From a virus (lineage: Duplodnaviria > Heunggongvirae > Uroviricota > Caudoviricetes), in the IMG/VR virus record IMGVR_UViG_2541047822_000005: a stretch of 32,820 bases of DNA; one strand, written 5' to 3'. The position numbers and the translations under genes are program-made. Of the stretch, positions 7,120-32,820 are shown piece after piece. How positions within the stretch are numbered: position 1 is the stretch's first letter; the number at the start of each line of letters is the position of its first letter. The notes beneath the pieces are model-generated. The model was not told where the DNA came from and made no database searches. It was given only the letters and a program-made list of their open reading frames with translations.

Positions 7120-7635
7120 TCAGAGGCCGAGGGCGTTGCGGTGCGCTTCCATCAGGTCCACACCGTCCACAATTTCCACCATGTTGATAAGGTCCACTTC
7201 ATAGAGCACCTCACCATTTATAGTCAGCTTCGCGTAGCTGTTGGTACTGGTCACTTTGGTGGTGTTGCTTTCGCCCGTCTTCCACTCGCCGGAATCCACT
7301 TCTTTGTGACGTCCACGCACCACAAGCTCCACGGCCTGCACTTCCCCGGTATCGTCACGCTGGATAGAGCCGGTAAAGCGCAACTGGATACCATCCACCG
7401 TGGCTTTGCCCATCTGCTTAAACAGCAGCAGTTCAGTACCACCAATGGAAAATTCCGTATCCAGTGCGCCGTCATCCAGCCCCAGATCCACATCCACTGC
7501 ACCCGGCATTCCGCCGCCGCGATACTTCTCATATTTGCGGGTAAATTTCGGCAGCGTCAGCGACTCAACGATCCCCTGCCAGTTGTTCCCGTCATTAAAC
7601 AGGTTCAGGTGTTTTAATTTGCGTGGTAAAGCCAT
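7120..7635 (-). CDS. FII: major tail tube protein FII
   Basis: 171-aa ORF with gpFII-like translation directly downstream of the sheath gene. Confidence 0.9.
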   Translation of the reverse strand: MALPRKLKHLNLFNDGNNWQGIVESLTLPKFTRKYEKYRGGGMPGAVDVDLGLDDGALDTEFSIGGTELLLFKQMGKATVDGIQLRFTGSIQRDDTGEVQAVELVVRGRHKEVDSGEWKTGESNTTKVTSTNSYAKLTINGEVLYEVDLINMVEIVDGVDLMEAHRNALGL

Positions 7636-7644
7636 GTTGTCCCC

Positions 7645-8817
7645 TTACGCGCTGACCTGGCTGGAGAAATTCACCAGGTACTGATCGGTGATGCGCTGAC
7701 GCAGCATCAGGTTTTCAAGTGGCGGCACTGGCGTGTAGTCGTAGTCGATGGTGAGTTTTCCGGCTTTCAGCGTGTCTTTGTCGTTCACCGACTCATCCAG
7801 CCAGCAATCACCACCAATGAGATAGCCCTGACTGACCAGGCTGCGCATTTTGGCGCGGATACCCTCGATAATGTCGCGGGCCAGCGACGGATTCAGCGGT
7901 TTATCCACCGCCCACATGTGCGCTTCTGCCATCGTGTCCGTCAGCACCTGCGCCGTGCGGGTGTAGTTTTCGAAGGCAAAGAGCGGGTCATCACTCAGGC
8001 AGCGGGAACCCCAGAAGCGAAAACCGTCTTTGCGGATAAGGGTGGTGACGTCGTTCTGGTTCAGCAGTCCCGCATCGGTTGCCGGGTCCTGCAGATCCCA
8101 GAACACATCAGCAGAAATTCCGGTGACACCGTTAACGCCCACGTTGGACAGGCTTTTGTGCCATCCGGTCTGCTCGTCAATTTTGGCGCGCAGACCAAGC
8201 GCACGGGCGGTGGCATAAGCCGTTGCTTCGGCATTCAGCACCGTGTCCCAGCCAGTAAAGTCGGGCCAGATCAGCATTCCTTCACGCTGACTGAAGTTTT
8301 CACGGTAAGTGATTGCTTCCTGCACTGTCTTGCAACCATACGCTGACAGGTAAGCAAATCCACGCAGGCTTTGCGCCACGCTCAGCAACTCAGTAGCTAC
8401 CGCCTTCGTGTCGTGACCTGGCACGCCGAGAATGCGCGGTTTAACGCCGAGCTGTGACTGGGCAGATAACAGGGCTTTCATGCCTGTTTTTTTACCTTCA
8501 GCGGTCACTGCGCCGATGATATTGGTCGTGGTTTCGTCTTCCGTTTCACCCTGCGGCACACGCACAACAACGGTCACGGGTTTTGCCTGGTCAGCGATGG
8601 CATCCAGCGAACGAGCCAGCGTGCCTGACTCACCCGCTTTACCGCTGGCAGTCAGCACATCAGTGATCAGCACGGGTTTATTAAGAGGAAACATTTTTGC
8701 ATCGGCATCATCGCCCGTGCAGACCATACCCACGATGGCGGTGCTCACCGTGGTAATGGATCGGGTGCCTTCGTTGACTTCAACAACGCGCACCCCGTGG
8801 TGGTAATCCTGAGCCAT
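7645..8817 (-). CDS. FI: contractile tail sheath protein FI
   Basis: 390-aa ORF with gpFI-like translation; first gene of the tail operon. Confidence 0.9.
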
Positions 8818-8893
8818 AGTGGCGAACCTCCTGATTGGATTAGGCTTCGCCCTATGTTGAAGTGATTGTGCCTGACAAACAGCTAAGCGCAGT

Positions 8894-8911
8894 TGTACCG
8901 TTATTCACACA
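8894..8911. promoter_or_regulatory. putative Ogr-dependent late promoter element (TGT-N12-ACA) for the FI operon
   Basis: TGTACCGTTATTCACACA dyad about 80 bp upstream of the FI start, consistent with the TGT-N12-ACA element of P2 late promoters. Confidence 0.5.
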
Positions 8912-8959
8912 AAATGACGGTATTTGTCTACTTTCAGGGATAATCAAAATAAAGCTGAT

Positions 8960-9532
8960 TCAGGGAGATTTATTGTTCTTATTTGCCGGAAATTTTCGAT
9001 AAATGGTAGAAACGCCTACATCAAAAATCAGTGCAATACGCTGTCTTGATTCTCCGGCCTCGAGTAAACGCCCAATCTGTGCCCACTGTTCGCTGGTCAA
9101 CTTAGGACGGCGTCCACCTACTCTGCCTTTAGCACGAGCTGCAGCCAGCCCCGCCCTGGTACGTTCAACTATCAGTTCGCGTTCCATTTCAGCCAGGGCA
9201 CCCATGACATGAAAAAAGAAACGGCCCATTGGGGTGCTGGTATCAATACTGTCAGTCAGGCTTCGGAAATTCACGCCACGCTGGCGCAGCTCTTCTATCA
9301 GCGTAACAAGATGCCGCATACTGCGCCCCAGTCTGTCCAGCTTCCAGACAACCAGCGTGTCTCCTGCCGATAGTGTCCTGAGCAGCTTTTTCAGCCCCGG
9401 TCTGTCGGACTTGGTGCCACTGATTTTATCCTCAAAAATCCGCTCACATCCCGCACAGTTCAGTGCATTGCGTTGCAAATCGGTGTTCTGGTCATTTGTT
9501 GACACGCGTACATAGCCAATAAGCATGATCAT
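8960..9532 (-). CDS. Hin/Gin/Pin-family serine DNA invertase
   Basis: 190-aa ORF with the serine recombinase N-terminus IGYVRVSTNDQ and a C-terminal HTH; sits beside inverted crossover sites flanking the tail-fibre 3' region. True start may be 2 codons downstream. Confidence 0.9.
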   Translation of the reverse strand: MIMLIGYVRVSTNDQNTDLQRNALNCAGCERIFEDKISGTKSDRPGLKKLLRTLSAGDTLVVWKLDRLGRSMRHLVTLIEELRQRGVNFRSLTDSIDTSTPMGRFFFHVMGALAEMERELIVERTRAGLAAARAKGRVGGRRPKLTSEQWAQIGRLLEAGESRQRIALIFDVGVSTIYRKFPANKNNKSP

Positions 9533-9581
9533 CCCCCTGAATAAAAACCGGAGATGATGCCAGTTAGCCGTTATCTCTGCA

Positions 9582-9607
9582 TTTTCATAAACGTTGGTTT
9601 GGGAGAA
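9582..9607. repeat. hix/gix-like inversion crossover site (left)
   Basis: TTTTCATAAACGTTGGTTTGGGAGAA is an inverted copy of the site at 11383-11408, sharing the 14-nt core TTCTCCCAAACCAA. Confidence 0.7.
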
Positions 9608-9913
9608 GCGGCAAAACGGAATGTGGGAACAGGGGAAAATCAGATACCTAGTATGTCAGAATGGACATCTGGGACAGGATGGAATAGAGACCCGTCGGGG
9701 AGAATAATACAGCGGGGATTTGCTATGGCATCAAATCAAACTAACATTTTATTCCCGATACCATTTCCGTATGACGATTTCGAAGTTATCGTTTGTGCAG
9801 CAGATACAGGAACAAATAAAGGGGCCGTAAATGTGTTGCAAAAATCGAGGCAGGGGTTTTCTGTTTCACAGGTTGGAAGTATGCCAGTCGCATACAGATG
9901 GATAGCGGGGTGA
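9608..9913 (+). CDS. silent alternative tail-fibre C-terminal segment
   Basis: Reading frame continuous through the crossover site; both copies encode GLGE in frame, so inversion would fuse this 102-codon segment to the constant part of H. Confidence 0.55.
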   Translation, partial: AAKRNVGTGENQIPSMSEWTSGTGWNRDPSGRIIQRGFAMASNQTNILFPIPFPYDDFEVIVCAADTGTNKGAVNVLQKSRQGFSVSQVGSMPVAYRWIAG

Positions 9914-10356
9914 TTGAAATGTATAAATTTGATCCAAAGAATGCATTATTCTATCCTGCTGCGTCAATTTCCGATTATAAATTGAGCGAAGATGAAATCG
10001 CCACATTCACTGATATTAGCGAGGAGGATGCAACCGAGTTTTTAGGATTCCCGCCGACTGGAAAAATCAGAGGGTCGGACGGTTATGGCAATCCTGCATG
10101 GGTTGAAATACCTCCACCATCACATGAGGAACTTATTGAACAGGCCGAATCAGAGAGGCAATTATTGATTAACCATGCCAACGAATACATGAACAGTAAA
10201 CAATGGCCTGGTAAAGCGGCTATTGGTCGTCTGAATGGTGAGGAACTGGCGCAATATAATTTGTGGCTGGATTATCTGAACGCACTGGAACTGGTTGATA
10301 CCTCCAGTCCGCCAGATATTGAATGGCCTACGCCTCCGGCAGTTCAGGCCAGATGA
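9898..10356 (+). CDS. alternative tail fibre assembly chaperone
   Basis: 152-aa ORF with Tfa-like translation, convergent with G inside the invertible segment. Confidence 0.75.
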   Translation: MDSGVIEMYKFDPKNALFYPAASISDYKLSEDEIATFTDISEEDATEFLGFPPTGKIRGSDGYGNPAWVEIPPPSHEELIEQAESERQLLINHANEYMNSKQWPGKAAIGRLNGEELAQYNLWLDYLNALELVDTSSPPDIEWPTPPAVQAR

Positions 10357-10936
10357 CATCCGGCGCGGTGCTGGTATCTGTTGCCGTCACCGCGTCAATG
10401 TAATCCAGCACAGCGTTAAGTCGGGTGGTTTCTGCCTGCGTCAGTTTACGTCCAGCCTGCAATTTCAGTTGAATCAGACTGATGGAAGCCATTGCAGTAT
10501 CAATCAGTGACTGACGCTGTGCTTCTGCCGTGTCTACTGCGGCGCTATGCTGTGCCTCGGTATCTGTCACCCATTTCTCACCATTCCATTCATCGTATGG
10601 AGTTAACGGGGCGATAGTGGTTGTATTTTCAGGATAATCACCCAGAGCTGTGATTTCTTTCGATTCTCCTGTTTCGGTGCTATAGACGATTTCACCGCGA
10701 TGGTCTGGCACATATTCCCATGAGTTAAAATCTGCAGAACGGCAAATTGCATAACCAGCTTCATATGAGCCAGGAGCATCTAAACAGGAATATGCGGGAA
10801 TGCCGACACCAATGGCAAGATATTCTGTTGATGTGGAAATATATTCCCGCGTTTCTCCGTTGTAGTTATAAACGGTAATGAAGCCAGGTTCCGTGGCGAA
10901 CCCGTTTTCATCTAAGGAAATTTCTTTTGCGGTCAT
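10328..10936 (-). CDS. G: tail fibre assembly protein G
   Basis: 202-aa ORF with Tfa-like translation directly downstream of H. Confidence 0.85.
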   Translation of the reverse strand: MTAKEISLDENGFATEPGFITVYNYNGETREYISTSTEYLAIGVGIPAYSCLDAPGSYEAGYAICRSADFNSWEYVPDHRGEIVYSTETGESKEITALGDYPENTTTIAPLTPYDEWNGEKWVTDTEAQHSAAVDTAEAQRQSLIDTAMASISLIQLKLQAGRKLTQAETTRLNAVLDYIDAVTATDTSTAPDVIWPELPEA

Positions 10937-12444
10937 TATACTGCCCTTACAATGTAGTTGAATGCGATGTTGCGCGGTCGGTTCTCTGACGCCGTGGGAA
11001 CAACATGGGATGCGTCAAAGTTAACATCTCTTGCAGTGCCGCCACTGTTAGAGTCAGAGGACGCGCTCCCCCTGATGCTCGTTGTGAATGCCCCTGAACC
11101 AGAAGGTTTAGTGTTAAATCTGACGTCAGCCAGCTGGCCGGTAATATTTCTTATTGCATCACCCTGCGCAGACAAAATAGTACGCCCAGAATCAACCCCG
11201 CGCCCGTCATCCCACCCACGAATAAACTCACCACGTAAATCTGGCAATTCATTTGTCGGATAAACTTTTGCCAGTTCCGGATACTCTTCGGCAGAAAAAG
11301 GCGCACCATTGCATTTCAGCCAGCCTGTTGGCGGAGTGGCTGAAGGCCACGGAACAGGCACACCAACGGGTAATGCCGAACCTTCTCCCAAACCAAGGTA
11401 TGTGAGAAGACCAGCTACATCCTTTCCACTCAAATTGGTAAGCGTATTGTCCAGCGGTTGTTTACCTGCCAGCGCATTAAGCATTGTCGTGGCAAAGTTC
11501 GGATCATTCCCCAGTGCCGCCGCCAGTTCGTTCAGTGTATCCAGTGCAGCAGGTGCAGAACCCACCATTCCTGCAATCGCCGATTTCACAAAAGCCGTAG
11601 TGGCAATCTGTGTATTGTTGACCGACTGCGCCGCCGTGGGGGCTGTTGGCGTTCCGGTGAGTGCCGGACTCGACAACGGTGCTTTTAGTGCCAGCGCATT
11701 GTTAATGGTGGTACTGAAATTCGGATCATTGTTAATGGCTGCGGCTATTTCTTTCAGCGTGTCCAGCGTGGCTGGCGCACCATTAATAAGGGCCGTCAGT
11801 GCCGCCTGTACAAACGCAGTGGTCGCAACCTGCGTGGTATTATTCCCCGCCGCTGGCGTTGGCGCTTTGGGGGTTCCGGTAAATGTCGGGCTGGCTTTTG
11901 GCGCGTACTGTGAATGCGGGTCCGGTGCGGCAAGATGTTTTGCCATCTGATCATCCGCGTACACCTTCAGCTCCAGTACCTTATCATCCACATACTTGCG
12001 GGTTGCCAGCACTACGGCAGGGTCGATTTTCAGGGTGATATTGTCCGTGCTGCTGGTAATCAACACCATACGCACGGTCTGGGTACGCCCGCTGCCTTCA
12101 GCCAGTTGCGGCTTATAGCTTTCCGGGCAGTTGCCCACGGCAATCAATGCCCCGGACTCATCAAACAGGCCCACTTCACGTATCCACCAACCGCCCTCGT
12201 TTTCAGGGATCACCTGTTCAGCAATAATCTGGCTGCTGTTCTGCGGGTCGATATAGAGCATATTCAGCGCAGCCCGGCGTTTCTCATTTACCAGTGCTGT
12301 CTGCTTTGCGTCCGGCGTTGGTAATGTTCCGCCGCCATCGCCGACCGCCATATGGGTAATTTTTAAAGGCACACCGAGCGCGGCGGCGCTGGCAAGTTTC
12401 GCCGCGCCAATATCCGTCAGCAGGGTATAAAATTTTGTGCTCAT
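10936..12444 (-). CDS. H: tail fibre protein H
   Basis: 502-aa ORF with a conserved gpH-like N-terminus, Ala/Thr/Asn-rich internal repeats, and a C-terminal part lying inside the invertible segment. Confidence 0.85.
   Translation of the reverse strand: MSTKFYTLLTDIGAAKLASAAALGVPLKITHMAVGDGGGTLPTPDAKQTALVNEKRRAALNMLYIDPQNSSQIIAEQVIPENEGGWWIREVGLFDESGALIAVGNCPESYKPQLAEGSGRTQTVRMVLITSSTDNITLKIDPAVVLATRKYVDDKVLELKVYADDQMAKHLAAPDPHSQYAPKASPTFTGTPKAPTPAAGNNTTQVATTAFVQAALTALINGAPATLDTLKEIAAAINNDPNFSTTINNALALKAPLSSPALTGTPTAPTAAQSVNNTQIATTAFVKSAIAGMVGSAPAALDTLNELAAALGNDPNFATTMLNALAGKQPLDNTLTNLSGKDVAGLLTYLGLGEGSALPVGVPVPWPSATPPTGWLKCNGAPFSAEEYPELAKVYPTNELPDLRGEFIRGWDDGRGVDSGRTILSAQGDAIRNITGQLADVRFNTKPSGSGAFTTSIRGSASSDSNSGGTARDVNFDASHVVPTASENRPRNIAFNYIVRAV
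11383..11408. repeat. hix/gix-like inversion crossover site (right, inside H)
   Basis: TTCTCCCAAACCAAGGTATGTGAGAA, inverted relative to the site at 9582-9607; both cross an in-frame G-L-G-E coding junction. Confidence 0.7.
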
Positions 12445-13046
12445 GGATTCACTCTCATTGTGTCAATAACATGGACCGCCCCGCCTTCATGCGCGGTGCC
12501 GCCGGAAATAATTGTTTCGTTGATATACGGATAGATCGTGATTTCTTCGCCAAGATAGCTGGCGGCTCCCACCCAATGCGGGCCGCTGGTCTGCAGATTG
12601 ATGGACATGCCGATCATGTGACGGCTACATGGTTTGGCATCGCTTATCAGTCGCTCAAGTTCCAGATAGGTATCTTCAGTGATGCCCTGGTCCTGCACGC
12701 CGATATCCAGGCGAAACGTGCCCGGTGCCTCTCCGGTCTGCCACCACTCAATAATGCGGATCAGAAAGCCGAACGGCTCCACCGCCCGCCGCACGGCACT
12801 GGTGGTCCCTTTATGCTGATGAATATAAAAAGCATCCTTCACCACCTGGCGCTTGACGCTTTCTGTCCAGCCCTCGTCCCAGCGATCCACAGAGAACGCC
12901 CAGGCGAGATAAGGCAGGAAACTGACCGGACAGGTTGCCGGATTCCACAAGTCACGCAGCGGCACCTGCAGATCAGAAATCCCGCTGCAGGTTTGCGCCA
13001 GTTGGCGCTCCAGTGGTGTTGAACCCGGTGGCAGCAGACTATTCAT
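12441..13046 (-). CDS. I: baseplate assembly protein I
   Basis: 201-aa ORF in the gpI position, overlapping J and H. Confidence 0.8.
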   Translation of the reverse strand: MNSLLPPGSTPLERQLAQTCSGISDLQVPLRDLWNPATCPVSFLPYLAWAFSVDRWDEGWTESVKRQVVKDAFYIHQHKGTTSAVRRAVEPFGFLIRIIEWWQTGEAPGTFRLDIGVQDQGITEDTYLELERLISDAKPCSRHMIGMSINLQTSGPHWVGAASYLGEEITIYPYINETIISGGTAHEGGAVHVIDTMRVNP

Positions 13047-24671: not shown

Positions 24672-27065
24672 TCAGTACCACTGGCGCCATTTGTCATCTT
24701 CCTGCAGTCGATGGTTGCGGTAAAAAATCCGTAGCCCGGCACCTGACGGAATGCTGCCACCACGCAGAAGCAAATCAATCTCAGATGCACTACCTTCAAA
24801 CCCTCTGGCAGTCAGTTCTGCCTCAAGCTGCAGGCGCTGCTGCTCCGAAATACTCTGTTTGAATGCTTTTTTCCGCTTCGGTTTTACCAGTCTTAACCTG
24901 GCTGTCAGCTCCCGGCGTTCCTTCTGGCCCATATTGTGGAGGTAATCGTGCAGTTCCTGCTCATTCATGGTTTTAATATCTGGCAAATCACCCCCTGATT
25001 TGTTCAGATTTTCAACAGGGGGACAGTTATTGCCACGAGTCCAAGGGGCGCAAGCGCCCTGGTCGGCTGCCGCCTCCTGAACGTCAACGGCCTTACGAAC
25101 CATTTTCCACTTCACGGCATGAGTGCAGATCTTGCCCTCTGCAATAGGTGACCAGATGCCATAAATACGAATGCCGTGATCGCCATAGGCGGTCGGCTCT
25201 TCGTTGATTTCATAAGCAGTTCTGATGAGGTGATATTTACGGGGAACCAGTACGCCGCCCTGCTTCATGATGTAGGTGGCAAAACAACCAGCATCAGCAG
25301 CAGCCAGAATGGCATCAAGACGCGGGTTATCCAGTACCGGCGCACCTGCTTTTTTGTCACCCTGTTGCCTTGCCGCCTGACCAGCCAGCAAGCGAAGTTC
25401 ACGGTAAGCCTGACGCCCCGGAATACCAAAGAAGCGGAATTGCTGAACACGATGCAGAGACGCCCAGGCATTCACGTATTCAGCGTTATCACGCAGAGAT
25501 TTACCCGTTTCCTTGCTGATCTCGCCAGCCAGACCACGACCGTCAATGTTCTTACTGATATATTTCGCGATGTAGCTTGTCGGCGTTCCTTTGCGCGGGT
25601 TAATCAACTCAGACTTAAAGCGCGGCCCAGTGTTATTGCCCAGCTCCTCGCGGTCTTCACGGATGGCAAACTTACGCAGTAATGCAGTGATGGCACGGCG
25701 GTCTTTTTTGCGCATGAAACACAACAGGTGCCAGTGAACTGTGCCATCATGATGCGGCTCAGCCACCCGCACGCCATACCAGCGCAACCCGGCTTTGTGC
25801 ATCGCCTTACGAAATGCAGCAAACATGCCGACCAGATAATCGCTGCTTTGTCTTACCGTCGCGTTTGTCCAGGTCGGGTTTGGTCTGCCGTTATTTAGCG
25901 TGGAATGGAAACGCGACGGACAGGTGATAGTGTAGAAAACGGCGCAGTCACCGCGCATTTCCGCGATAAGCTCCAGACCTTTAACACAGGCCATCATCTC
26001 ATTGCGGCGATGCGCAGGGTTGCTGCTGCTGGCGTTTACCACATCCTCCATGTCCAGCGTGTCGCCGTCTTCGTTCACCAGTTCATGAGAACGGAAAAAC
26101 TCCAGCGACTTACGGCGCTGCTCACGTTTATGCATCACGGCTTCATAGCTGACATAAGGAGATGCTTTTTTGCTGACTAGGCAAACAGCGCGCAACTGCT
26201 CTTCCCGCCATTCGCAACGCATCTTCCATAATTTCCGATACCACCAGTCGGCGCACAACATACGCGCCAGCGAACCCGGAATGAGTTCATAGGGCACGGG
26301 TTTACGGCGGTTTCTTTTCCGACGAAGTTTCTCAAACGCAGGCGGGATAACATCCAGACGCAGGGTTTCCGCAGCCACCTTTTCCCATGTCTTGCGGATT
26401 TCTTCTGGCTTAACGTCATCGGTGGCGTACAAATCACCACAAGCGGCCTCAAGACACATGCTCATATGCGCTGCTACCAGGGTGGACAGGCGTTTCACCT
26501 GATCCTGGCTCATTTCAGGCAGGATCAGCAGCCCCTCCAGCCCTTGATGGCTTGCCATAAAACGGAAAGAAACAGATAGCTGACTGTCACGTACACAATC
26601 CAGTCGCTCCAGACATGGCTTAATCGTCTCACGCAAATAGCGGGAATAAGCCTTTGGCCTGCCCAGGCTGCTGAAGTATTCGATACGTTGCATCAGCGGC
26701 TTGCTGATATGAGAAGGCTGGGCGCTGACATCTGCCAGAATGACCATGTCCGGGTTAAAACGCTGCTGCTCATGCGCCAGCTTTGCCCGGCTAATGAGCT
26801 TATCCTGCTCCATTTCGCGCTGGACAGGATCACGGGATTCATTAAAGAAATAACGCTCCCAGACCTGCTCACTCAGTGCCTCGCGGCGCAGTTGTTCCTG
26901 CTCGTTATCGGCAGCGTACAGAGTGATCAGGTTTGAAAGTGCAGACTCCGGCGCAACTTCCGCCGGATCCAGATAAGGGTTAATGGCCTTTTTCGGGCCG
27001 TTCCATGAAAATGCTGCGGCAGCCTCGTTAAAGCCGCTAGAGTTGCTCATATCGTCATGACTCAT
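24672..27065 (-). CDS. A: replication initiation protein A (rolling-circle nickase)
   Basis: 797-aa ORF with gpA-family translation in the expected early-operon position. Confidence 0.85.
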
Positions 27066-27919
27066 ACACGCACCTCGTACACAGCAGAACTATCCACGCC
27101 ACGCGAAGGATCAAATCCCATCCAGCAGCGCGACCCGGAAACAGCAATGATTTCTGTTGCAGATTTACTCTCGCCAGCTGACACGCCGATGCTGCGTTTT
27201 GCCTTGATGTAGTGGTGAGTGAAATTGCGATACAGCGAACGGATCAGGGATGTGTCACTGTTAGAAACAATGACCGGATGACCTTCTGATGATCGATATT
27301 CAAGAACGGATGCCAGGTGATACTGGTCATCTTCAGTGAAGCCGTTAGTGTGATAACCGGAAAACGTGCCGTCATACGGCGGATCGCAATACACCACATC
27401 CCCCGCCTTCAACATCGCCAGCGTTTCATCAAAGCTGGCGCAGATAAACGTTGCTCGCTGGGCCTTTTCTGCAAATGCGCGAATTTCTTTTTCAGGGAAA
27501 TACGGATTTTTATAATTACCGTAGGGAATGTTGAAATGCCCGCTCTTGTTATAGCGACATAAACCACGGTAACCGTGACGATTGAGATACAGGAAATATA
27601 CCGCTTTCATGAAATCAGTAATTTCAGTTGAGTAATTAAACTCCTGCCTTATGTTGTAATAAGCCACCTCCCTGTTTGCGATCTCAAATAAAACTCTGGC
27701 GCGAGATATAAACGATTCACAATCAGAGGCAACCTTTTTATAGAGGTTGATTAAATCAGGATTAATATCCGCAACCAGATAGCTGGGGTAATCCGTCTCC
27801 ATCATCACAGCACAGGAACCCGCGAAAGGTTCAACCAGTCGCGGGCCAGCAGGAAGGTGTTTTTTCAGTTCGGACATAATGGCGGTTTTATTTCCCACCC
27901 ATTTCAGGATGGTGCTCAT
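27062..27919 (-). CDS. Dam-like DNA N6-adenine methyltransferase
   Basis: Conserved ILKWVGNK N-terminus, FAGSCAV S-adenosylmethionine-binding motif and DPPY catalytic motif. Start taken at the internal ATG, which overlaps the upstream stop in an ATGA arrangement (track ORF is 27062..27979). Confidence 0.85.
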
Positions 27920-28143
27920 ACAGCACCTCCGTTGTAATGTTTGCCTTTCAGCTCTGCGATTTCCTGACAGGTAATGCAAAGCTGCACACCCGGAATGGCA
28001 CGGCGGCGTGCTGGCGGAATTGGCGCTTCACACTCAACGCAAAGCACGCGGGACACGCCCGGCGTTTTGGCACGGGCAGCACGGATATGACGTTGGCGTT
28101 CTTCTTCAACTCGCTGCTGTACGAGATCCATTGCATCAGCCAT
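27916..28143 (-). CDS. TraR/DksA-family C4 zinc-finger protein
   Basis: 75-aa ORF with CxxC-N17-CxxC (CVECEAP...CITCQ). Confidence 0.7.
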   Translation of the reverse strand: MADAMDLVQQRVEEERQRHIRAARAKTPGVSRVLCVECEAPIPPARRRAIPGVQLCITCQEIAELKGKHYNGGAV

Positions 28144-30743: not shown

Positions 30744-31784
30744 ATGACCATCAGAAAACAGCCGAACGGAAAATGGTTGTGTGAGTGCTATCCCAATGGA
30801 CGCAATGGTAAGCGCGTGCGTAAGCAATTTGCTACCAAAGGCGAAGCCATTGCGTTTGAAAGCTTCACAATGGAAGAAGTGAACAAAAAACCATGGCTAG
30901 GGGAAAAGGAAGATCGGCGACATCTATCAGAATTAATTGAGCTGTGGTATTCCCTGTATGGTCAAACACTCGCAGACCCCAAGCGCCTCATGGCGAAACT
31001 TAGAATTATCTGTAATGGTCTAGGCGATCCCATCGCCTCAGAACTGACAGCTGGTGAGTTTACGAAATACCGCGAAGCACGGTTAAAAGGTGAAGTACGA
31101 AATGAAGATGGCACGCTTATGTCGCCCGTTAAGCCCCGCACGGTAAATCTTGAACAGCGCAACCTATCATCTGTTTTTGGTACACTGAAAAAGCTGGGCC
31201 ACTGGTCAGCCCCCAACCCGCTTGCTGGGCTGCCAACATTTAAAATTGCTGAGGGTGAATTGGCGTTCCTGACCCCGGAAGAAATTAAACGTCTGCTGGA
31301 TGCCTGTGCTGATTCTCAAAGCCCCAGTCTGCTGATGATTGCAAAAATATGCTTGGCCACCGGCGCACGCTGGAGCGAAGCCGAAAACCTACAGAGTCAT
31401 CAGGTATCAAAATACCGTATCACTTATACCAAGACTAAAGGAAAGAAAAACCGAACAGTGCCTATTTCAAAGGATTTATATGAAGAACTGCCTAAGAATA
31501 GGGGAAAATTATTTACACCTTGTAGGAAAGCTTTTGAACGTGCGGTAAAACGAGCTGGTATCGAGCTACCAGAAGGGCAATGCACACACGTATTACGACA
31601 TACATTTGCAAGTCACTTTATGATGAATGGCGGAAACATACTGGTGCTGCGCGATATTCTGGGCCATGTCGATATAAAAATGACAATGATTTACGCCCAC
31701 TTCGCTCCCGACCATCTGGAAGATGCTGTAACCAAAAATCCTCTTGCTAACCTTGGATGGAGAAAATTAGAAAGTGCTTGTTAA
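30744..31784 (+). CDS. int: tyrosine integrase
   Basis: 346-aa ORF with the tyrosine-recombinase C-terminal motifs (R...HVLRHTFASHFMMNGG...LGH...MTMIYAH). Confidence 0.9.
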   Translation: MTIRKQPNGKWLCECYPNGRNGKRVRKQFATKGEAIAFESFTMEEVNKKPWLGEKEDRRHLSELIELWYSLYGQTLADPKRLMAKLRIICNGLGDPIASELTAGEFTKYREARLKGEVRNEDGTLMSPVKPRTVNLEQRNLSSVFGTLKKLGHWSAPNPLAGLPTFKIAEGELAFLTPEEIKRLLDACADSQSPSLLMIAKICLATGARWSEAENLQSHQVSKYRITYTKTKGKKNRTVPISKDLYEELPKNRGKLFTPCRKAFERAVKRAGIELPEGQCTHVLRHTFASHFMMNGGNILVLRDILGHVDIKMTMIYAHFAPDHLEDAVTKNPLANLGWRKLESAC

Positions 31785-31890
31785 TAACTATATCCAACAA
31801 TACCCATGGATATCGTACTTACTTATCATAATATATTTTTTATATATATGCCTTGAATTATATCTATGCGTATCAAAAAAAGGCTTTAAC

Positions 31891-32820
31891 ATGGATGAAA
31901 GGCCATTAACAAGTCAATACTTATTTAAACAATCACTTAGGATTCCTGTATTTTCAGCGATATACTTTGGTATATTTTCCTGGCTTGGACATTCCCCTCA
32001 ATTTGATAGTGAGGGCTTTAATAATTTCATTGCAATTAGCAAGCTTCCTATCGCCTTACTTTCTTTGTCCATACCATTTGTTGCTGTCGTAGCAAACATA
32101 CACCGCACAGTTCAAACAAACCGACAAATTGAGGAAACCAAGCAAAAGAATCTATCTGATAGCTACTATAGCCATCTAAAGTTCGTTACTGATTATTTCA
32201 CCAATTTACCTAACAAAACCATTAAACGCGAACGTCATTATGGTACTAAAGAGATAAGTTATAAAATAAACTACCCAATACATCTATATAGATATATTTT
32301 CATAAATAGCTCACCAGAGAAGGGACGGCCTAAAAATACAGATAAAGAATACATACGTGAAGTAAATAATCACTGGGTTGATATACTAAAAAACCTAGAG
32401 AAGATACATTCATCTAATCGTGGCTCTCAGTTTGCCGAAGTTTTAATCCGTCAAATGCAATCTCTTCATTCAATAGAAAAACACTTATCCGAACTTAATC
32501 GAATGCTTTGCCTAACTCCCATGGAGTTAAATGAACATGCAACTTTATACTTTGATGGATATGAAATGATTACTAACTTCATGTCCAGCATTGAACTTGG
32601 CGATACAATTGAAACCTACTTCAAATTTACCATTGATATTCTTGATATTACCGATAATTTCCTTTCATTCAAGGATGATGGCTCGTCTGGGCAAATCATT
32701 ATACTAGCAAGATTACTGAAAGATAATAATCCAGCTATCTTTGATGAAATTGTAACAAACAAAGGGAAGGCTCAACCTTCGTTGACCTACAATGGCGACA
32801 GATTGGCGACAGAACATTAA
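31891..32820 (+). CDS. hypothetical AT-rich protein with two predicted N-terminal transmembrane helices
   Basis: 309-aa ORF from the internal ATG (track ORF 31774..32820 overlaps the int 3' end). Two hydrophobic segments, IPVFSAIYFGIFSWLG and ISKLPIALLSLSIPFVAVVANI, are followed by a soluble domain; codon usage is markedly AT-rich. Confidence 0.6.
   Translation: MDERPLTSQYLFKQSLRIPVFSAIYFGIFSWLGHSPQFDSEGFNNFIAISKLPIALLSLSIPFVAVVANIHRTVQTNRQIEETKQKNLSDSYYSHLKFVTDYFTNLPNKTIKRERHYGTKEISYKINYPIHLYRYIFINSSPEKGRPKNTDKEYIREVNNHWVDILKNLEKIHSSNRGSQFAEVLIRQMQSLHSIEKHLSELNRMLCLTPMELNEHATLYFDGYEMITNFMSSIELGDTIETYFKFTIDILDITDNFLSFKDDGSSGQIIILARLLKDNNPAIFDEIVTNKGKAQPSLTYNGDRLATEH

Follow-up and report, generated by a model that had tools for sequence, protein, structure and literature searches.

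A probable Din-family inversion switch for the receptor-binding tail-fiber end in a 186/Fels-2-like prophage of Escherichia coli

Exchange of phage tail-fiber ends by site-specific DNA inversion has been a textbook mechanism since Mu Gin, P1 Cin, and e14 Pin. In Mu and P1, the constant N-terminus of the fiber is encoded outside the invertible G or C segment, alternative C-termini with their chaperones (S/U and S′/U′) are encoded inside it, the crossover sites are 26 bp long, and a Fis-dependent enhancer lies within the invertase gene. The P segment of the Escherichia coli element e14, inverted by PinE, measures 1797 bp (PMC12529663). Inversion has also been described for P2-like prophages: it was reported from genome comparison for Fels-2 of Salmonella LT2/LT7, whose invertase is Fin (PMC7953296), and shown experimentally by sequencing and polymerase chain reaction for those of enteropathogenic E. 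coli (EPEC) E2348/69 (PMC4272514). At the Z/fun hotspot, a survey of P2-like phages described both swaps of tail fibers and DNA invertases, the latter accompanied by inversion of neighboring genes (bioRxiv 10.1101/2024.10.15.618418). Here, we analyze a 32,820-nucleotide stretch of DNA (IMG/VR record IMGVR_UViG_2541047822_000005; hereafter the window) that carries a prophage related to 186 and Fels-2. Next to its tail-fiber gene H lie an invertase gene and a second, silent fiber end in the opposite orientation, and we consider it highly probable that together they form a Din-family (Gin/Cin/Pin-type) inversion switch for the receptor-binding end of the fiber.

Compared with the described systems, the locus is closest to the e14 P segment in sequence and to Fels-2 and the EPEC prophages in setting. 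It shares the layout of e14 (invertase gene, crossover site, silent tip, chaperone, an opposed chaperone overlapping the first by 29 bp, and a tip), but e14 is a defective lambdoid remnant in which stfE is a pseudogene, whereas the fiber here is a full-length gpH-type protein of an apparently complete P2/186-type myovirus prophage. With Fels-2 and the EPEC prophages it has in common the phage family, the place between chaperone and sheath genes, and the logic of the switch; one EPEC prophage, however, has three repeats and four variants, against two sites and two variants here. The invertase gene lies downstream of the fiber operon and on the same strand, as in Mu. The Mu G and P1 C segments, at 3-4.2 kb, have far larger variable parts, and no match was obtained between Mu S/U and the fiber cassettes of the window. 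The invertase gene borders the adjacent site with its 5′ end, whereas in P1 it is the 3′ end of cin that adjoins cixL. Salmonella Hin belongs to the same subfamily of recombinases and acts on 26-bp hix sites that also have AA as their core, and its enhancer lies ~100 bp from the proximal site, as the candidate enhancer does here, but Hin inverts a promoter governing flagellin expression and not the coding cassettes of a phage fiber.

The longest inverted repeat in positions 8000-13000, from a listing of 13 pairs, has arms at 9582-9608 and 11382-11408 (27 nt, 85% complementary, 1773 nt apart). Within these arms lie two 26-bp crossover sites. The site next to the invertase gene (9582-9607, minus strand) reads TTCTCCCAAACC AA CGTTTATGAAAA, and the site within H (11383-11408, plus strand, codons 343-354) reads TTCTCCCAAACC AA GGTATGTGAGAA. 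Each consists of imperfect 12-bp half-sites around a 2-bp core; the central dinucleotide AA is the same in both, and the two are inverted relative to each other. A 26-nt site consensus searched with up to 3 mismatches matched exactly twice in the window, on opposite strands, and not once across 100 dinucleotide-preserving shuffles, and the 14-mer TTCTCCCAAACCAA is common to both sites and occurs nowhere else in the window. From core dinucleotide to core dinucleotide, the bounded segment runs from 9595 to 11395 (1801 bp, without strand), compared with 1797 bp in e14. A first-pass annotation of the sequence had placed inverted 26-bp sites at 9582-9607 and 11383-11408 around a segment of roughly 1.8 kb, a prediction that proved accurate nearly to the base.

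Both sites fit the published Din consensus (PMC3241671). Recombination sites of the Din family are tabulated in Table 3 of that paper, where the e14 site beside pinE is listed as pixR; in direct comparison with the K-12 e14 sequence beside pinE, site 9582-9607 was identical at 26 of 26 positions. The site within H is pixL-like, its left half and AA core being equal to those of pixL and pixR. The e14 repeat core CCTTCTCCCAAACCAA quoted by PMC12529663 matches at 16 of 16 positions at 11381-11396. Mu gix, by comparison, has the core GA (PMC3241671). Short inverted repeats are common, as the 13 listed pairs attest, and the two arms might in principle be a chance repeat that happens to lie beside a resolvase-type gene unrelated to it, without any programmed inversion; nothing else speaks for this explanation, and both the shuffles and the identity of one site to pixR already count against it.

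A multi-inversion system such as p15B Min or that of the one EPEC prophage would have additional sites. No third crossover site was found in the window, whether with the consensus at up to 3 mismatches, with up to 8 substitutions around an AAACC core, or by a half-site search. The first-pass annotation had called the locus a shufflon, and this label is rejected. R64-type shufflons resemble it in that alternative adhesin C-termini are produced by DNA inversion, but they use the tyrosine recombinase Rci and several sfx sites to give many arrangements, whereas here a serine resolvase/invertase lies beside only two sites.

The adjacent recombinase gene (8960-9526, minus strand) encodes 188 amino acids beginning MLIGYVRVS; the open reading frame (ORF) finder begins two codons earlier, with an ATG in the same frame at 9532, for a version of 190 amino acids. 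The product combines a resolvase-type catalytic domain (Pfam Resolvase, 2.3e-53) with a C-terminal helix-turn-helix (HTH_7, 5.8e-16, residues 140-183), falls in PHROG 125 ("DNA invertase", 1e-100), and aligns over residues 1-183 with the Mu Gin structures 3UJ3 and 4M6F in the PDB (E = 1e-92). It is 85% identical to e14 PinE, 79% to P1 Cin, and 74% to Mu Gin. In NCBIfam, the protein gave only sub-threshold matches to other serine recombinase families. The suggestion of a Hin/Gin-family invertase immediately beside the segment was thus borne out, and a check for mutation of the catalytic serine found Ser9 in place and the gene intact. The N-terminal MLIGYVRVSTNDQ with the nucleophilic serine is the same in the window invertase, PinE, and Gin, and Cin differs only by N11E. 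Against WP_000905027.1 of E. coli 22AR0750, 189 of 189 positions are identical (188 residues plus the stop symbol).

In Hin, K47, R48, and K51 of helix B and Q151, R154, and L155 of helix 1 of the DNA-binding domain are conserved specifically in invertases that depend on Fis and the enhancer (PMC3798978). The window invertase carries K46, K47, and R50 and Q150, R153, and L154 at the corresponding positions. This correspondence presumes a one-residue offset in numbering between the two proteins. With its catalytic domain and serine, its C-terminal helix-turn-helix, and its length of ~190 amino acids, the enzyme is, judged by its sequence, a member of the Hin/Gin/Cin/Pin (Din) subfamily.

The segment separates a constant part of the fiber from two opposed cassettes, each composed of a tip and a chaperone. 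As sequenced, H occupies 10936-12444 on the minus strand and encodes 502 amino acids. Its constant N-terminal part (codons 1-350, 11395-12444, minus strand; P2-type Phage_tail_fib domain, 3.1e-65) lies outside the segment, and its variable, expressed C-terminus (10936-11394, minus strand) is a collar-type tip of 152 amino acids that begins with GLGE (Collar, 9.7e-14, residues 361-408 of the whole protein). The expressed chaperone, a TfaE-like equivalent of G with 202 amino acids, follows at 10328-10936 on the minus strand (Caudo_TAP, 3.1e-32). On the plus strand, a silent fiber C-terminus at 9596-9913 encodes a gp53-like tip of 105 amino acids that likewise begins with GLGE (Gp53-like_C, 1e-08) and falls in PHROG tail-fiber and virion structural families; the ORF that contains it, 9554-9913, has no plausible start of its own. 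A silent chaperone of 145 amino acids (9919-10356, plus strand; Caudo_TAP, 4e-30), part of a longer ORF from 9898, differs by one residue from WP_032252818.1, which is annotated in relatives. NCBIfam returned no match for the fiber proteins. The ORFs and Pfam matches thereby substantiate the first-pass view of the 3′ end of H with its chaperone in one direction and a silent fiber C-terminus with another chaperone in the other.

The crossover sites are read in frame in both copies, as LLTYLGLGE in H and as IFINVGLGE in the silent copy. The inner half-site GGTTTGGGAGAA encodes GLGE and is the same in both, so that the in-frame G-L-G-E junction noticed earlier is preceded by leucine in H (L-G-L-G-E) and by valine in the silent copy (V-G-L-G-E); the crossover falls in the codon immediately preceding GLGE. 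With the constant N-terminus outside and an in-frame fusion in both states, inversion at these sites would exchange one tip for the other. The two tips belong to unrelated Pfam families, Collar and Gp53-like_C, and are therefore likely to recognize different receptors. At their 3′ ends (10328-10356), the two opposed chaperone genes share 29 bp, exactly as tfaP and tfaE do in e14. A terminator would find no space here, so late transcripts of H and its chaperone are expected to continue, antisense to the silent cassette, toward the invertase gene, which is on the same strand as H.

Among the e14 counterparts, TfaE shows 87% identity to the expressed chaperone, and the C-terminal part of stfE 58% to the expressed tip. 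The silent chaperone is 65% identical to TfaP over the C-terminal half, and the gp53-like silent tip has no significant match to StfP. The expressed cassette (noted at 10880-11205 and 10610-11380) is itself a mosaic: the window is 96-98% identical to E. coli 13P477T on both sides of a stretch, 10880-11205, that has no megablast match there and that covers the end of the collar-type tip and the start of the TfaE-like chaperone. In 22AR0750, the position of the collar cassette is held by a wholly different cassette, and the gp53-like cassette is shared at 98.4%. Fiber cassettes appear to be exchanged independently. The G+C content of the invertible segment (about 41-49%, noted for 9450-10950) is below that of neighboring structural genes (55-60%), which fits horizontally exchanged receptor-binding cassettes.

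Evidence for inversion came from an in silico reconstruction and from relatives. In the inverted configuration built in silico, H becomes a protein of 455 amino acids in which the gp53-like tip follows codons 1-350 in frame, and the 145-amino-acid chaperone comes next. This flipped H is 98.0% identical to the annotated fiber of 22AR0750 over all 455 residues, and the silent ORFs for tip and chaperone are intact and 98-99% identical to copies expressed in relatives. A 601-nt query across the flipped junction (constant H joined to the gp53-like tip) matched 7 complete E. coli genomes in a single full-length piece at 93.7-98.5% identity. One of the 7, strain 22AR0750, has at the same ssrA site a prophage region nearly identical to that of the window, 99.85% identical from sheath to invertase with every invertase residue identical, and its gp53-tip cassette is inverted relative to the window, in the expressed position. 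Two records of strain 13P477T, CP019274 and CP019275, have 100% identical flanks and differ solely by the exact inversion of an 1848-bp stretch bounded by the sites; CP019275 also contains smpB and ssrA and thus represents the chromosomal locus in an alternative assembly. The constant part of H is 97-98% identical to relatives of either orientation.

Judged from these alignments, the patterns in 13P477T and 22AR0750 are what site-specific inversion leaves behind, and they lie precisely at the points that were predicted. Near-identical prophages therefore occur in both orientations, which is a statement about relatives of this strain rather than about the strain itself. The explanation by a chance repeat is effectively refuted, since opposed cassettes fuse in frame and relatives are inverted precisely at the sites. 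The earlier claim that inversion swaps the receptor-binding tip accordingly stands as far as an in-frame flipped fiber matching an annotated protein is concerned, and does not extend to a flip seen in this strain.

An enhancer likely lies within the 5′ end of the invertase gene, by homology. The P1 record annotates an "enhancer of Cin-mediated C-segment inversion" at nt 19-90 of cin, and the putative equivalent, nt 19-90 of the window invertase gene, is 9437-9508 on the minus strand. Identity to cin DNA is 76% over nt 19-90 and 68% over nt 91-540. Under a strict Fis motif (G-N13-C, no fewer than 5 A/T among the central 7), neither the window nor pinE nor gin contained two sites spaced by 47-49 bp, and the candidate enhancer was therefore located by homology to the annotated P1 element. 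One candidate Fis 15-mer, GTGTCAACAAATGAC at 9491-9505, is 96-97 bp from the center of the adjacent crossover site, and a second, GTGCGGGATGTGAGC at 9442-9456 (G-N13-C), lies 48-49 bp beyond the first. The distance from hixL to the proximal Fis site is ~100 bp (PMC3798978), which the 96-97 bp spacing matches.

Between the invertase start and the crossover site, the spacer 9527-9581 shares conserved motifs (ATGGCATCAT ... CTTTTA) with e14 and Mu and includes a weak terminator-like hairpin (9546-9565, minus strand); it could be the promoter region of the invertase gene or an insulator against read-through. In a scan of 8800-12600, the count of promoter matches was not above that in shuffles, and 7 weak terminator-like matches were found compared with 3.9 ± 1.7 in shuffles.

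Taken together, the data are consistent with the following sequence of events. Invertase dimers would bind the two 26-bp sites, and the sites would synapse, most likely with a Fis-bound enhancer in the 5′ end of the invertase gene. Staggered cuts at the central AA/TT, a 180-degree rotation of one subunit pair, and religation would then invert the 1801-bp segment, while the late operon promoter and H codons 1-350 would remain fixed outside it. In the sequenced orientation, H would end in the collar-type tip and be followed by the TfaE-like chaperone; in the inverted orientation, it would end in the 105-amino-acid gp53-like tip and be followed by the other chaperone. A population of lysogens would thereby release two kinds of virion that differ in receptor specificity. 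Inversion activity in this lysogen, dependence on Fis and the enhancer, and the change of host range are, in this scheme, predicted from the parts and their relatives.

Several observations weigh against a switch that operates in the present copy. A single orientation is present in the window. Among database genomes, 375 have the collar-type junction and 7 the gp53-type junction, a skew that mixes different cassette combinations and so says little about the rate of switching. The outer half GGTATGTGAGAA of the site in H is divergent, with 5 positions of the right half unlike pixL, although it keeps GGTAT of cixR/bixL and the terminal GAA of the dix consensus (PMC3241671). Both candidate Fis 15-mers match the Fis core weakly. 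A four-gene synonymous-site test gave only a slight excess of fully conserved codons in the enhancer-equivalent stretch (5 of 19, compared with 10 of 93 elsewhere), and conservation of this DNA is confounded in any case because it also codes for the stretch of the invertase that is best conserved. Finally, invertase decay is known in the lineage: in the closest relatives, 13P477T and E371, the gene has an 8-bp deletion and an AGA-to-TGA nonsense codon and is annotated as a pseudogene (1331-1889, 1561-2119, and 1331-1889 in the relatives' loci L001, L002, and L003, with lesions corresponding to window 9124 and 9266-9273).

The single orientation, the divergent site in H, the weak Fis matches, and the decay of the gene in relatives would suit a frozen relic, in which a formerly functional system no longer inverts to any meaningful extent, through poor invertase expression, a weak H site, or a degraded enhancer, and the silent cassette is merely carried along. 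We judge this unlikely. The gene encodes a full-length invertase that agrees with an annotated RefSeq protein at every residue, the cores of the sites are identical, and the silent ORFs retain both their integrity and their similarity to copies expressed elsewhere; near-identical prophages are, moreover, found in both orientations.

Strain 13P477T shows both orientations despite its broken adjacent invertase; another Din invertase may have acted there in trans, or the gene may have decayed after the last flip. Precedents for trans action exist: PinQ, PinR, and PinE each invert the e14 P segment, and reports cited in the same paper describe action of Fin on the Salmonella H segment and inversion of the Mu G segment by PinE (PMC12529663). 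Given such trans action and the two orientations in 13P477T, loss of activity in the neighboring invertase would not on its own be enough to refute switching.

The same observations raise the question of whom the switch serves. It might be shared with the host cell, the segment being flipped largely in trans by PinE or PinQ/PinR, or the prophage invertase driving their inversions, and its output might be a phenotype of the lysogen, such as a chimeric fiber that blocks phage adsorption, rather than virion host range. The invertase-side site equal to pixR, the full match to CCTTCTCCCAAACCAA in the H site region, the similarity of the expressed chaperone to TfaE and of the tip to StfE, and the case of 13P477T are all compatible with this, as is the finding that the StfE2 resulting from P-segment inversion by the three Pin enzymes blocks T2 adsorption (PMC12529663). 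The fiber nevertheless belongs to an apparently complete P2/186-type prophage, with a tail/baseplate operon, terminase, capsid, gpA, CI/CII, and integrase, no sign of e14 or Qin emerged for this strain, and H depends on late phage transcription, so that a function in the virion is the simpler reading and one serving mainly the host is very unlikely.

A separate proposition is that Din invertases in one cell form a network of cross-talk, in which the prophage invertase flips the e14 P segment and PinE, PinQ, or PinR flips the prophage fiber. One site equal to e14 pixR and an enzyme 85% identical to PinE make this conceivable, and we hold it to be possible but doubtful. If true, it would link host-range bet-hedging by the prophage to the StfE2-type block of T2 adsorption, and the two orientations in 13P477T would be a footprint of trans action. 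Possible cross-talk with the e14 and Qin invertases is the sole angle here with some research value, as the switch as such is already known: the occurrence of such systems at Z/fun has been described for P2-like prophages, RefSeq already lists the invertase and the two fiber forms, and both orientations are present in public genomes.

The inversion switch that we favor does have practical consequences. ORF 9554-9913 should be annotated as the silent half of a switch and not as a pseudogene or the remnant of a gene, breaks or false joins can arise at the invertible segment when such strains are assembled, and predictions of host range for the prophage should take two receptor-binding tips into account. 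Parts of the region (invertase, chaperones, fiber) were matched in 3482 of 5426 complete E. coli genomes.

The element is a 186/Fels-2-like member of the P2 family situated beside ssrA in E. coli. The window starts with smpB and ssrA, the transfer-messenger RNA (698-1060, tag ANDENYALAA) lying just upstream of the prophage end. The ssrA flank is 100% identical to that of 22AR0750 and was matched by 5426 of 5426 E. coli genomes, nearly all at 95% or more, which identifies the host as E. coli. Fels-2 also integrates at ssrA. A repeat marking the far-end att site was not found within the window. The element carries CI, CII, and Fil of the 186 type, a Dam-type methylase, gpA, and an integrase, and a full tail/baseplate operon in P2 order, with homologues of I, J, and W beyond H, in addition to terminase and capsid genes; the prophage is apparently complete. 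In P2, G is followed by a terminator, fun(Z), and FI. Here, the interval between the chaperone gene at 10328-10936 and the sheath gene holds the silent cassette and the invertase, consistent with the first-pass remark that the switch occupies the Z/fun position of P2. The sheath gene (FI) lies at 7645-8817 and the tail tube gene at 7120-7635, both on the minus strand and assigned from ORFs and Pfam.

Other genes of the element were noted in passing. Between ssrA and the tail gene D homologue, two plus-strand ORFs are possible cargo genes: 1184-1666 matches PHROG 2561 ("DNA ligase", 2e-76) and has no Pfam match, and 1705-2136 has no match at all. At the other end, directly after the integrase gene, a 348-amino-acid ORF (31774-32820) matches only PHROG 17460, a family of unknown function (1e-155), apart from a very weak PADLOC match to "2TM effector" (2e-4); this ORF, too, is possibly accessory cargo. 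A gene for a D12-class N6-adenine DNA methyltransferase (27062-27979) adjoins replication gene A; within the family, such a gene is typical of the 186-like and not of the P2-like members.

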